Positions 6,001 through 15,000 of a DNA stretch of 64,000 nucleotides are shown piece by piece; position 1 is the first letter of the stretch, and the number at the start of each line of letters is the position of its first letter. The position numbers were made by a program, and so were the translations under genes. Below the pieces are notes generated by a model. The model did not search any database, was not told the origin of the DNA, and saw nothing but the letters and a program-made list of their open reading frames with translations. The stretch spans positions 896,001 to 960,000 of the forward strand of contig CAVYRF010000001.1 of the NCBI GenBank assembly GCA_963770895.1, written 5' to 3'. The stretch comes from an uncultured Acidobacteriota bacterium (GTDB lineage: Bacteria > Acidobacteriota > Thermoanaerobaculia > Multivoradales > UBA5704).

Positions 6001-9000
6001 GCGCAGTTCCTGGCGCGGGTCCGCGGCGAGACGCTGGCCGCCCACGCCCACCAGGACCTGCCGTTTGAAAAGCTGGTCGGGGCGCTGGCGCCGGAGCGGA
6101 GCCTGGCCCATTCGCCGCTCTTCCAGGTGATGCTGGTGCTGCAGAACGCCGAGCTGGCGGAGCTGGCGCTGCCGGGACTCCGCCTGGCGCCCCTGGACCT
6201 GCCGGAGAGCACGGCGCGCTTCGACCTGACGCTGGTCCTGGCGCAGGCGGACGGCGGCCAGGTCGCGGGGAGCCTGAGCTACAACACCGACCTGTTCGAC
6301 GCGCCGAGCGTGGAGCGGTGGATCGGCTGCTTCGCGCGCCTGGCGGCGGCGGCGGTGGCGGCGCCGGACCAGCCGCTCGCCGCGCTGCCGCTGCTCGGCG
6401 CGGCGGAGCGCTGCCAGCTGCTGCTGGAATGGAACGACACCGCCGCGCCGCTGCCGGCGGAAACGCTGCACCAGCGCTTCGCCGCCCAGGCCGCGCGCCA
6501 TCCCGACGCCGTGGCCGTGGTCTGGGGTCACCAGCGGCTCAGCTACGCCGCTCTCCACGCCCGCTCGCGCCGGCTGGCGCGGCGCCTGCTCGCCCTGGGA
6601 GTCGCGCCGGAAGAGCCGGTGGCGCTCTACCTGCACCGGTCGCCGGCGGTGGTGGCGGCGATCCTGGGCGTGCTCGAAGCCGGCGGCGCCTACGTGCCGC
6701 TCGACGTCGGCCACCCGCGCGAGCGCATCGCCGCGCTGTGGGAGAACGCCGGCAGGCCCCTGCTGCTGACCGAGCGCCGCCTGGCCGCCCGGCTCGCCAT
6801 CCCGGAGTCGGCCCTGGTCTGCCTCGACGAGCTGGCCGCGGACGGATCGGCTCCCGCAGCGGCGCCGCCCGCCGCGGCGCGAGCGGAGGCGGCGAGCCTC
6901 GCCTACGTGCTCCATACCTCGGGCTCGACCGGCACTCCCAAGGGGGTCTGCTGCACCCATCGCAACGTCCTCAACCTGCTGGCCGACTTCGACCGCCGCC
7001 AGCCGCTTCTGGCGGGCAGCCGTTGCAGCGTCTGGACCAGCCTCAGCTTCGACGGGTCGGTCGCCGAGATCTTCTCGCCGCTCATCGCCGGCGGCGCGCT
7101 GCACCTCGTGGCGGAGGAGGTGCGCCAGGACCCGCACCGCTTTCTGGAGTGGCTGGCGGCGGAGCGCATCGAAAGCGCCTTCGTGCCGCCGTTCATGATC
7201 GCCTCCCTCTGCCAGCGGTTGGAGGCGGCGCCCGACGCCATCCCCCTCTACCGCCTGCTGACGGGCGTCGAGCCGATCGCCCTTGCGCACCTGGCCCGCA
7301 TCGCCCAGCTGCGGCCGGACCTCGCCATCTGGAACGGCTACGGCCCCACCGAAGCGACCGTCTGCGCCACCTTCGACCAGCTCGGCCCGCGGCGGGGCAC
7401 CGCCGGCAGCAGTGCGAGCAGCGCCGGCGGCCCCGGCGCCGCCGCCAGCGCCACCATCGGCCGCCCGGCGGCCAACAGCGCGATCTACCTGCTCGACGCC
7501 GCGTTCCAGCCGGTGCCCCTGGGCGCCGCGGGCGAGGCCTGCATCGGCGGGGCGGGGTTGGCGCGCGGGTATCTGCGGCAGCCGGGGTGGACCGCGGAAC
7601 GGTTCGTCCCCAACCCCTGGAGCGCAGCAGGCGGGGAGCGCCTGTACCGGACGGGCGACCTGCTGCGCCAGCGGCCCGACGGCAACCTGGAGTTCCTGGG
7701 ACGGGCCGACCGCCAGGTGAAGCTGCGCGGCTTCCGCATCGAGCTGGGGGAGATCGAGGTGGCGCTCGCCGAGCACCCGCAGGTGGCAGAGGCGGCGGTG
7801 GTGCTCCGCGAAGCCGGCCCCGGCGGCACCGGTGGCCCCGGTGATCGCGGGCTGCTGGCCTTCGTCGTGCCGCGGCCCGGCGCCGACCTGGCCGGCCCAG
7901 CGCTGCGCGAGCACCTGTTGGCCCGGCTGCCCGACTACATGCTGCCGGCCCAGGTGGTGCCGCTGGCCGTCATGCCGCTCACCGCCAACGACAAGGTGGA
8001 CCGCAGGGCGCTTCTGGGGCTGGCGCCGCGCCCGGCCGCGGACGCGCCGGCGGTGCCGGCGGGGGGCGGCGACCCGGCCGGCGAGACCCTGGCCGGGATC
8101 TTCGCGGTGGTCCTGGGGCGGCAGGGCGTCGCGCCGCGGGACGACTTCTTCGAGCTGGGCGGCCATTCGCTGCTCGCCACCCAGGTGATCGCGCGGGTGC
8201 GGGAAGCGTTCGGCGTCGAGCTGGGGCTGCGGGCGCTCTTCGAGGAGCCCACGGTCGCAGGGCTGGGCAGGAAGATCGCGGCGCTCCGCTCGCAGGCCCG
8301 CGCCGCCCAGCCGCCGCTGCTGCCGGCGGGGCGGGACTCCACCCTGCCGCTGTCGTTTTCCCAGGAGCGCCTGTGGTTCATCGAGCAGCTCGCGGGCCGG
8401 TCTCTCTATAGCCTGCCCCTGGCGGTCCACCTGGCCGGCGCCCTCGACGTCGCGGTCCTCGCCGCCTGCCTGCGGGAGGTGGTGCGCCGCCACGAGGCCC
8501 TGCGCACCCGCTTCGTCGCCGTCGAGGGGCTGCCGGCACAGGTGATCGACGACTCCTGGCGGCCCTCCCTGCCGGTGATCGACCTGACGGGGCTGGCAGC
8601 CGGGCCGGCGGTGGGGGAGCTGGAGCGGCGCATCGCCGCCGAAGAGGAGCTGCCGTTCGACCTGGCGCGCGGGCCTCTGCTGCGCGCCAACCTGGTGCGG
8701 CTGGCGGCGGACGATTGCGTGCTGCTCTTCACCCTGCACCACCTGGTCACCGACGGCTGGTCCATGGGGCTGCTGGTGCGCGAGATCGCGGCTCTGTACG
8801 CCGCCTGGGTCCGCGCCGCGCCGTCGCCGCTGGCCGAGCTGCCGATGCAGTACGCCGACTTCGCGCTCTGGCAGCGCCGGTGGCTGCGCGGCGACGCGCT
8901 CGCCGAGCAGCTGGACTACTGGCAGCGCCGGTTGGGCGGGCTCGAGCCGCTGGCGCTGCCCGGCGACCGGCCGCCGGTGGCGGGGCACGTGTTCCGCGCC

Positions 9001-12000: not shown

Positions 12001-15000
12001 TACTTCGGCCGCCCGGACCTGACCGCCGAGCGGTTCGTGCCCAACCCGTTCGCCGCCGACCCCGGCGATCGCCTGTACCGCACCGGCGACCTCGCCCGCC
12101 GCCTGCCCGACGGCGACCTCCATTTCGGCGGCCGCGCCGATCACCAGGTCAAGATCCGCGGCTTCCGCATCGAGCTGGGTGAGGTCGAACTGGCGCTGGC
12201 CCGGCATCCGGGGCTGCGGGAGTGCGTGGTGGCGGCGGTCGACGACCCGTTGGGCGGCCGCCAGCTGGCAGCCTACGTGGTGGGCGACTCGCCGCCGCCC
12301 ACGGCGCGCGCGCTGCGCCAGTTCCTGCTGGAGCGGCTGCCGGCCCACATGGTGCCGGCCGTCTTCGTCCGTCTGCCGCAGCTGCCGCGACGGCCCAACG
12401 GCAAGGTCGACCGCGGCGAGCTGCCGGCGCCGGGAGCCGCCGGAGAGGGCCTCGCGGAGCCCTTCACAGCGCCGCGGGCCGGCGTCGAGGAGCGGCTGGC
12501 GGCCCTCTGGCGCGAGCTGCTCCAATGCGGCCGCGTCGGCCGCGACGACGACTTCTTCGCCCTGGGCGGCCACTCGCTGACCGCGGCACGGCTGCTGTCG
12601 CGGGTGCGTGAAGAGCTCGGCGCCGACCTGTCGCTGCCCGCCCTGTTCGCCGCGCGCACGGTGGCCGGCCTGGCGGCCCACCTGGCGGCTCCCGCGACGG
12701 GGACCGCGGCCGCGGATGAAGCTCCGGGCGCGGCGGCGCTGCCGCCGGTCACGCCCCTGCCGCGCCGCGACGGCCTGCTGCCGCTGTCGTTTCCCCAGCA
12801 GGGGCTGTACTTCCTCGACCGGCTGGCGCCGGCGGCCGCCGCCTACACCATCCCGTACGCCTTCGCCGCCGCCGGTCCGCTGGCGCCGGCCGCGCTCGCC
12901 GCGTCTCTGTCCGCCATCCTGCGCCGCCACCAGGTGTTGCGCACCCGCCTGGTCGAAGTCGACGCCGCGGTGTGGCAGCAGATCCTGCCCGCCTCCGACC
13001 AGCCGCTGCCGCTGCCGGTGATCGACCTGGGAGCCCTGCCGCCGGCGCGGCGCCGCGGCGACGGAGGCGAGGTGCGGCGCCTGGCCGCCGCCGCGGCCCG
13101 CCAGCCCTTCGACCTGGCGAGCGGCACGCTGCTGCGCGCCAGCCTGCTGCGGCTGGCCGCGGACGATCACGTGCTGCTGCTCGACGTGCATCACATCGCC
13201 TACGACGGCGGTTCCGAAGAGATCCTGCTGTGCGAGCTGGCGGCGCTGTATCGGGAGGCGGTGGGGGGGCCGCCGGCGGCCCTGGCCGAGCTGCCGGTGC
13301 AGTACGCCGATTTCGCTGCCTGGCAGCGAGCGTGGCCGCGGGAGCACCTGGCGCGCCAGCTCGCCTGGTGGCGCCGGCAGCTGGCCGGGGCGCCGGCGGC
13401 CCTCGATCTGCCCACCGACGCGCCGCGCCCGCCGGTGCAGAGCTTCCGCGGCGCCCGCCGCGGGCTGCTGCTGCCGGCCGAAGCTACCCTGCGGCTGCGC
13501 GAGGCGGCGCTGCGCGAAGGGGTGACGCCCTACATGGTGGTGGCCGCCGCCTTCGCCGCGCTGCTGGCCCGCACCAGCGGCCAGCACGACCTGCTGGTGG
13601 GCACGCCGGTGGCCAACCGCGCGCGCCCCGAGCTCGCAGGATTGATCGGCTTCTTCATCAACACGCTGGTGATCCGGTTGCCGCTGGCCGGCGACCCCGA
13701 CGTCCGGCAGCTGCTGGGCATCGTGCGCGAATCGACCCTGGCGGCCCTGGCCCACCCCGATCTCCCCTTTGAAACCATGGTCGAGGAGCTGCGGCCGAGC
13801 CGCGACCTGTCGCGCAACCCGCTGATGCAGGTCCTGCTCGGCTGGCAGGACGCCGCCCGGCCCGCCGCCGCCGGCGAGCTGCGCCTTACCCCGTTGCGGC
13901 TGGGGGTGACGCCGGCGGCAAAATGCGACCTGGCGCTGATGGCCGAGGTGGACGCGGAGCCGGGTCCGGCGCTGTCGCTGGAGCTGGAATTCGCCACCGA
14001 CCTGTTCACCGCCGCCACCGCGACGCGCCTGCTGCGGCACTGCGTGGCGCTCATCGAGGAGGTGGTGGGCAATCCCGCCTGCCGGCTGTCGCAGCTGGCG
14101 ATGCTGAGCGCGGCGGAGCGCCAGCAGCTGCGCGTCGAGTGGAACGACACCGCCGCGGCGCCGCCGGAGCGGTCCCTGCACCGCCTCTTCGAGGAGCAGG
14201 CCGCGGCAGGACCGGACGCCATCGCCCTGGCCTGGGACGACGGGCGGCTGAGCTATGGCGAGCTGGACCGGTGGGCCGGCGCGATCGCCGCCCGGCTGCG
14301 GCGCCTGCCGGTCTGGCCGGGAGCGCGGGTCGCCCTGTGCATCGAGCGCTCGCCGGCGATGGTGGCGGCGGTCCTGGGGATCCTCAAGGCCGGCGGCGCC
14401 TACCTGCCGCTCGACGCCTCCCAACCGCGCCAGCGCCTGGCGCTGCTGCTCGCAGACGCGGCTCCGGCGGCGGTCGTCGGATCGCGCCACCTGCTGGCCG
14501 GCCTGCCGGGCACGGTGCCGCACCTGCCTCTGCCGGCGGCTCCGGTGGCTCCGGCGGCCGAGGAGGCCGAGGCCGCCGCGGCCCGCCCTGCCCCTGCAAC
14601 CGGCGGCCTGCGCGAGATGCCTGCCGCCGCCGGGCCGCCGTCCGGCGGCGTCGACATGCCGCCGCAGGCGGTGGCGTACGTGCTCTACACCTCGGGTTCC
14701 ACCGGGGTGCCCAAGGGCGTCGAGGTCAGCCACCGCGCCGTGGTGCGGCTGGTGCGCGCCACCGACTACGCGGCGTTCGACCGCGACCAGGTGTTCCTGC
14801 AGCACGCGCCGATGACCTTCGACGCCGCCACCCTGGAGCTGTGGGGGCCGCTCGTCAACGGCGGCTGCCTGGCGCTGCTGCCGCCGCGCCGCTTCGCGCT
14901 GGCGGACCTCTACCAGGCGGTCGAGCGCCACGCGGTGACCGTGCTGTGGCTGCCGGCGGCGGTCTTCCACCTGGCGGTGGACGAAGGCATCGCCGCGCTC

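Follow-up and report, generated by a model that had tools for sequence, protein, structure and literature searches.

A type I thioesterase in the interior of a giant non-ribosomal peptide synthetase from an uncultured Acidobacteriota bacterium, and its probable origin by fusion of two subunits

The DNA analysed here (the window) is a stretch of 64,000 nucleotides from an uncultured Acidobacteriota bacterium, G000:C1:896001-960000 of a genome of 8.16 Mb in three contigs, and it opens within a giant gene for a non-ribosomal peptide synthetase (NRPS) in which a thioesterase domain is followed in frame by four further modules. The gene lies on the plus strand as a single open frame, which covers positions 1–22665 of the window in frame 1 and extends 2283 nt upstream to a stop at G000:C1:893717; its probable start is an ATG at G000:C1:893874, 2.1 kb upstream of the window and preceded by GGGAGG, so that the encoded protein comprises about 8264 amino acids. 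Pfam recognizes Condensation, AMP-binding and PP-binding domains in this protein, together with one Thioesterase (PF00975, E = 3.5e-28). Mapping with the protein's own domain copies and small profiles resolves these into the order C0-dC-A1-T1-C2-A2-T2-C3-A3-T3-C4-A*-HX-TE-A4-T4-C5-A5-T5-C6-A6-T6-C7-A7-T7-tail, where C is a condensation domain, A an adenylation domain, T a carrier domain, TE the thioesterase, dC a remnant of the C-lobe only, A* a collapsed adenylation domain and HX a basic helix-turn-helix.

The carrier T3 (8089–8274, with the motif GGHSL), which would hold the upstream (tri)peptidyl chain, is followed by the full-length condensation domain C4 (8344–9678; profile positions 1–447 matched) with its motif HHLVTDG at 8737–8757, and no A-T pair stands directly behind it. 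The remnant A* (9685–9846), the helical element HX (9901–9996; core LSxAKRxLLxxRLRG) and the TE (10051–10839) come next, after which an Ala/Pro-rich linker at 10840–10950, the presumed fusion point, leads into A4 (10951–12405, core and C-terminal subdomain) and T4 (12496–12681). Modules 5–7 (C5-A5-T5-C6-A6-T6-C7-A7-T7) occupy 12778–22575, with T7 at 22393–22575, and the protein is closed by a conserved acidic helix of the LLxQIExLSxEEA type at 22576–22662 (the tail), with no release domain downstream of T7. A first-pass annotation had described this region as an intact C domain with HHLVTDG after T3 (its C3, the C4 of the present numbering), a collapsed A remnant, a docking-like helix, a TE with a Ser in GWSFGG and a His in GDHY, then directly A4-T4 and three more full modules, ending in T7 plus an acidic helix without a release domain; every one of these elements was recovered in its place. 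At the N-terminus, where a docking domain, another starter or another TE had been considered, no docking helix was found; the first-pass annotation is to be corrected in that an extra full-length C domain (C0) and the C-lobe remnant dC precede A1, their 5' part lying upstream of the window. This gene start, a full divergent C domain followed directly by a C-lobe-only remnant and then A1, lies across L119:17874-20000 and window positions 1–1020. It looks as if a starter C domain had been fused ahead of a former dC-A-T start module, and in a tree of C domains C0 groups with first-position and post-epimerase-type domains.

The continuity of the frame was examined on the assembled sequence. The GC content at third codon positions in the frame of the gene is at least 0.84 all through 9300–11475, homopolymers of six or more nucleotides are absent from the junctions, and the frame contains no stop within 10741–11040. 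The linker between TE and A4 is free of stops in all three forward frames, the first stop in another frame appearing near 11010, and its codons include no in-frame ATG, GTG or TTG between the end of the TE and the start of A4; A4 therefore has no start codon of its own. Judged in this manner, the usual marks of an assembly artefact appear to be absent from the junctions, and the earlier statement that neither a stop nor a frameshift interrupts them is upheld.

The TE carries a complete catalytic triad, namely Ser3435 in GWSFGG (10303–10305), Asp3462 in LLDSW (10384–10386) and His3593 in GDHY (10777–10779). The Asp, whose absence had been named beforehand as an argument against a working TE at this place, is thus present and lies 27 residues past the Ser, and all three residues are invariant in nine of nine aligned relatives at about 50% identity. 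In an AlphaFold2 model of HX-TE (pLDDT 79), two helices are connected through a disordered tether to a lidded alpha/beta hydrolase. The nearest solved structures by both sequence and fold are the type I releasing thioesterases of AB3403 (4zxh, E = 5.9e-24), EntF, Pks13 and Vlm2; the top Foldseek matches of the model are the AB3403 TE, 7crn/7dxo, the Pks13 TE and the Vlm2 TE, and a surfactin TEII chain is matched at E = 5e-4 only. By predicted fold, motifs and nearest structures, the domain is accordingly classed as a type I releasing thioesterase. An assignment to the type II or editing class, which is characterized by a GHSMG-type signature, a late Asp and free-standing editing relatives (PMC5707447), was considered and rejected, the present domain having GWSFGG in place of GHSMG, its Asp at Ser+27 and type I enzymes as its best solved matches. 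Its position, with C4-A*-HX before it and A4-T4 plus three modules after it, is nevertheless atypical for type I; the ordinary T-TE layout was found in 70 of the 80 related loci taken from public genomes and in 83 of the best 150 representatives.

The condensation domain ahead of the TE looks like a working domain of the elongation (LCL-like) type and not a relic. The ten pre-TE C domains placed in the tree, C4 among them, group into a single clade (SH-aLRT 92, inner node 98), whose stem is short and which falls among normal elongation C domains; this is where a phylogenetic check proposed in the first-pass annotation has led, and the HHxxxD motif is kept in all 18 rows of an alignment of such domains; at least two proteins in that alignment duplicate loci, and G020C8 was omitted from it as a frame break splits its domain. 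Because of this short-stemmed clade and the conserved motif, C4 most likely joins the two halves of the protein. A distance of 424 residues, made up of A*, HX, TE and linker, separates C4 from A4, and in most relatives a gene boundary falls within it. The adenylation domain that once followed C4 has collapsed within 138 residues, with the A-T part reduced to about 50. A profile of A* matches the protein's own A domains weakly (iE 0.0006 to 0.65), covering the A6 and A7/A8 regions in order in four of seven and, again weakly, the A7/A8 region alone in two more; Pfam at E values up to 10 returned no match on the 157 residues between C4 and TE. From this remnant it would follow that C4-A*-HX-TE descends from a C-A-T-TE termination module that has lost its A-T.

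The arrangement was found to recur in relatives. Residues 3190–3660 used as a query retrieved 21 large proteins. Each of the best eight (40–53% identical) terminates in ...T-C-(remnant)-TE, its C and TE not being separated by an A-T, and the remaining 13 have an ordinary T-TE end. Throughout 40 related genomes the helix-plus-TE unit recurs at 49–55% identity, with nothing closer found, and an ortholog of the fused gene was not found in the nine same-genus genomes searched, the best match being 52% identical. In at least ten relatives C-(A*)-HX-TE ends a gene and an NRPS gene lies behind it: in L017, L019, L021, L022, L023 and L026 the next same-strand gene opens with A-T, and in L013, L015, L016 and L024 it opens with a C domain cut at the lobe boundary and then A-T, often with a GTGA stop/start overlap. 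A free-standing HX-TE protein stands ahead of such an NRPS in L018 and L025, which belong to one lineage, and everything is contained in one frame in the window gene and in L014, which comes from a different genus. A second NRPS follows C-HX-TE in 12 of the 13 loci with an upstream C domain (the exception being L020), and the fused layout C-HX-TE-A occurs in none of the best 150 representatives. The boundary between genes in the relatives thus falls exactly between TE and A-T, and A4 is nearest to the first A domain of the relatives' separate downstream gene; the headline of the first-pass annotation, that a termination half has been joined to the front of an initiation half, is borne out by this boundary.

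Judged by domain order, the design is a recurrent one in Acidobacteriota of a Thermoanaerobaculia-like kind, and the layout is conserved and apparently functional, with the only TE standing ahead of four more modules or, where there are two subunits, closing the first of them. The two one-frame fusions probably arose separately, because L014 keeps a remnant of a C-A linker between its TE and A domain and that A domain falls in another clade; the tree of pre-TE C domains leaves a separate origin unforced. A common specificity of the A domains behind the TE was considered as well and discarded, since they are spread over at least four places on the tree. Among the close relatives, P0002–P0007 and the locus G015:C3 (L017 and its extensions) encode sulfotransferase domains (precomputed Pfam hits PF13469 and PF00685), and the same relatives show gaps of 355 aa from a T domain to the next C domain, some of them right ahead of the C-HX-TE unit.

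The far end of these systems was traced in six relatives, 40–60 kb past the TE, in addition to the window. The NRPS behind the TE has four to five modules in all of them and ends, in seven of seven, in a T domain plus the conserved acidic tail and without a TE; HX and tail are both present in every traced system. Within the present genome the HX profile and the tail profile have two matches each, in the same two systems, and NRPS frames end in TE 24 times and in T 28 times. Free-standing thioesterases make up about 25 of the best 150 representatives, and nine of the best 150 carry an N-terminal HX; the helix heads the free-standing TE proteins of L018 and L025 and is also found at the N-terminus of the C-starting subunits L080 and L054. 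On these grounds HX is proposed to act as a docking helix with the tail as its partner, and the HX-TE model, with its two helices and disordered tether, is in keeping with a docking element on a tether.

Several other loci display the helix in related settings. In metagenome-assembled genomes of Pyrinomonadaceae, a family-4 glycosyltransferase (GT4) is fused to HX-TE (L056:8810-10990; also L064); its gene comes directly behind that of an NRPS with T and a tail-like acidic helix at its end. At L054:315-8099, three consecutive genes read [...T-tail-like], [A-T-C-HX] and [HX-C-A-T-TE], such that an orphan C domain with a C-terminal helix is succeeded by a subunit opening with the same kind of helix. 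At G015:C3 (L102, L103), a single C-HX-TE gene is followed by two NRPS genes, both opening with A-T and closing with T plus tail, and it is possible that they are alternative partners for one release unit.

Structure prediction, applied to the proposed complex of HX-TE with T7 plus tail, supports it weakly. The pair reached a score of 0.59 against 0.00 for the best control and passed a mark that 116 of 157 solved complexes pass, as do 2 of 215 mismatched pairs, scores of 0.60 or below comprising 18 of the 157 solved complexes and both passing mismatches. The runs share at least 59% of their contacts and the pLDDT of the partner is at least 76; no interface was returned.

Taken together, these observations make it probable that the giant protein is a fusion of two subunits that together make one joined product, with the TE as the sole release domain reaching T7; this judgement covers a collinear and a convergent variant alike. 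In the proposed sequence of events, the starter-like C0 and modules 1–3 would build a chain held on T3, which is probably N-acylated because C0 is starter-like. C4 would join this chain to the peptide arising from A4-T4 through module 7, giving a probably N-acylated heptapeptide, and the TE would finally act on T7, brought back to it by the acidic tail binding HX. The TE would thus owe its place in the middle of the protein to a gene fusion and not to a function in the middle of the line. A C domain opens the upstream half in the window and three relatives, a divergent, loader-like A-T in G015C3 and G020C25; the upstream half is taken for the true start of the line because of the starter-like C domain here and the loader-like A-T in those two relatives. 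The third option of the first-pass annotation, in which this C domain serves A4-T4 across an insertion, comes close to this best reading; its suggestion of an editing TE is less apt, as the domain appears to be a type I releasing enzyme and the only release domain, with final release from T7 as its likely job.

How C4 would obtain its acceptor is where the two variants part. In the collinear variant, which is a tentative choice, the acceptor is the Ala-like aminoacyl group thioester-bound to T4, and chemical precedent favours T4 in this role. Somewhat less credible is that C4 takes, instead of T4, the finished chain on a docked T7 or a chain already released. Convergent assembly, a doubtful proposal, is the form of this in which the tetrapeptide is made independently and the docked T7 serves as the acceptor of C4 and then as the substrate of the TE, two parallel chains being ligated. 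C4-A*-HX-TE would here be a termination module in which a docking site stands in place of the former A-T; a true initiation module would start the downstream half, and C4 would attach the acyl-tripeptide to the finished chain at its free N-terminus. This variant is in line with the truncated C domains that begin the downstream gene and with its lack of an N-terminal docking element, and also with the two tail-bearing NRPSs for one C-HX-TE in G015, the [A-T-C-HX] gene in L054, the GT4-HX-TE protein in L056 and the free-standing HX-TE systems. A one-step origin, by a deletion that fused a C-A-T-TE line to a neighbouring HX-TE gene, is plausible and favours the docked T7.

A number of points weigh against the fusion with a single joined product. 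The pass in complex prediction may be memory, because T-TE complexes (EntF) have already been solved, and the prediction leaves the contact between tail and HX unshown. A third NRPS end in this genome, at G000:C2:5430463-5442699, consists of T plus a tail-like acidic motif, and HX was not found near the end at C2:5442699 in 50 kb scanned, about 19 kb of it downstream, at permissive thresholds. At G000:C1:2147992-2170654 lies a paralogous two-gene system in which the first gene ends in ...C-A*-HX and then a stop; the second begins with a short piece from the His region of the TE, joined to dC-A-T, and has T plus tail at its end; the TE core is deleted and both long frames are open. A paralog without a TE core may mean that the TE is dispensable, or else that this copy is dying. 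The exceptional locus L020 has C-HX-TE without an NRPS in the 11 kb downstream, and the relatives are kin, so that the counts overstate independence. The third tail-like end, the TE-less paralog and L020 speak against the docking in particular. Against the collinear variant in particular, no conserved N-terminal docking element is present where the downstream gene starts directly with A-T, the heads there being mutually unlike and some 5 to 45 residues in length; against the convergent one, a C domain that uses a peptidyl carrier as its acceptor is not known to have a precedent.

The strongest rival, an unlikely one, is that two products are made: the TE would free an (acyl-)tripeptide from T3, modules 4–7 would produce a tetrapeptide unrelated to it, which either the same TE, through docking, or another enzyme would release, and C4 would be idle or non-condensing. 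The downstream half indeed opens like an initiation module, with A-T or dC-A-T, and free-standing HX-TE with a downstream NRPS exists without an upstream half in L018 and L025. Two complete lines in one frame also occur in nature, in single proteins of the form C-A-T-TE-(dC)-A-T-...-TE (P0084, P0025, P0034 and P0037), where termination modules are followed by in-frame modules and a second TE. In the giant protein, however, no T domain adjoins the TE for the first chain, T3 being separated from it by C4, A* and HX. The HHxxxD motif of the orphan C domain, kept in all 18 rows, and the absence of a long branch speak for a catalytic role, and a further point against this rival is that a second NRPS comes after C-HX-TE in 12 of 13 loci. 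The option of two peptides in the first-pass annotation keeps some standing and leaves an orphan C domain with a catalytic motif unexplained.

Quite improbable is a TE that does not release at all, being a proofreader or a relic of the former termination module, with the T7 chain freed by some other enzyme such as a TAP-like hydrolase or a distant one. In-cis thioesterases with editing or unclear roles are in print (PMC5707447 and PMC6113372), the paralog in this genome does without a TE core, and 0.8 kb downstream the opposite strand carries an alpha/beta hydrolase gene. The published cases, however, are type II-like, whereas the TE here has GWSFGG, its Asp at Ser+27 and type I releasing enzymes as its best matches; its triad is invariant at about 50% identity, none of the seven systems traced to their end holds another release domain, and the candidate hydrolase lies on the opposite strand.

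A permuted line, in which A4-T7 makes the first part, T7 hands it to C0, modules 1–3 extend it and the TE releases it, draws on the downstream half starting with A-T and ending in T and on the upstream half starting with C in the window and three relatives, but is very improbable: the upstream halves of G015C3 and G020C25 open with loader-like A-T and have no C domain to take the chain, C0 has no HX-like helix ahead of it, the orphan state of C4 between T3 and TE would persist, the place of C0 in the tree is consistent with a starter role, and the tail after T7 co-occurs with HX ahead of the TE and not with C0. The first option of the earlier annotation is given up for the same reasons, namely the loader-like starts of two relatives, an N-terminus without a docking helix and a tail that pairs with HX.

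The genes around the giant NRPS gene support its being taken as a single line. Its upstream neighbours, on the opposite strand, encode an ABC-transporter ATPase, a DinB-family protein, a transglutaminase-like protein and a kinase. Downstream come an unassigned frame of 227 aa, the TAP-like alpha/beta hydrolase at 23470–25038 on the minus strand and an SRPBCC/GyrI-like protein, and further on BNR and beta-propeller proteins, a DUF418 protein and an MFS exporter. No other NRPS gene adjoins the giant gene and no further release enzyme is evident; because the neighbours hold no other NRPS gene, the giant gene would be a one-gene line with no release domain besides the internal TE. From position 43108 of the window onward there is a separate trans-AT PKS/NRPS (polyketide synthase) system with its own A-T start and a T-TE end about 25 kb beyond the window. 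In this second cluster, at 46065–50250, an A domain with its C-terminal subdomain and the next T domain lie in different overlapping frames (46146–50165 and 46652–60184), which may be a frameshift or an assembly indel.

Substrates were read from motif-anchored pocket residues compared with reference codes, and the assignments are only indicative: A1 is presumably Leu-like, A4 Ala-like, A5 Val-like, A6 Ser-like and A7 basic, and no substrate was called for A2 and A3. A2 (3187–4731) is set apart from the other A domains by a very long branch (1.91 changes per column), and its pocket residues fit none of the codes used for comparison. The product read in this way would have a Leu-like residue at position 1 and X at positions 2 and 3, then Ala, Val and Ser, and finally a basic residue.

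The implications extend beyond this gene. Tools that predict products, and textbooks, take a type I TE as the end of an assembly line, and the family described here, with its apparently functional layout, departs from this; it also marks uncultured Acidobacteriota as a likely source of undescribed NRPS logic. If docking of the tail to the helix is true, such clusters become readable by a rule, with one product released from a far carrier, a portable cassette consisting of a TE on a docking helix becomes available for engineering release in trans, and the possible convergent ligation of peptide to peptide by a C domain becomes directly testable. For a type I TE placed after an orphan C domain and a docking helix and followed by an initiation-type NRPS without a TE, no description was found in open-access text, where the relevant matter concerned CylH (PMC5707447, which also mentions FmoA5) and alpiniamide (PMC6113372).

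Known systems share some of these features and differ in others. With the canonical C-A-T-TE modules of AB3403 (4zxh) and EntF the present TE has its fold and triad in common, the AB3403 TE being the nearest solved structure; in contrast to them, A-T is here down to about 50 residues plus a docking-type helix, and four more modules follow in frame. Internal or in-cis thioesterases have been described in FmoA5 of the JBIR-34/35 synthetase, arranged C-T-TE-TE-A-T (PMC5707447), and in CylH, AlpA2 and the burkholderic acid polyketide synthase (PMC5707447, PMC6113372); all four share with the giant protein a non-terminal TE that has A-T after it in the same protein. In those cases a T domain precedes the TE, which is type II-like or has an unclear role, whereas a single type I TE stands here after a C domain and a helix as the only release domain.

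The T-X-TE region of glycopeptide-antibiotic synthetases is similar in that a condensation-fold domain separates the TE from the last upstream carrier. In the X domain the active-site motif is degenerate, and the domain recruits oxygenases; C4, in contrast, keeps HHLVTDG and clusters with normal elongation C domains, and its identification as an X domain was rejected. NRPS subunits are joined by docking or communication helices, and release enzymes that act in trans exist. The present elements resemble such docking pairs in that a short basic helix and a short acidic one at the C-terminus are found together in the same systems, with HX also heading C-starting subunits. Unlike in those pairs, the 'N-terminal' helix lies inside the polypeptide and its proposed partner is the C-terminus of the same protein, or of the next subunit in the relatives, because of which the proposed contact between tail and HX would run backwards along the gene order.

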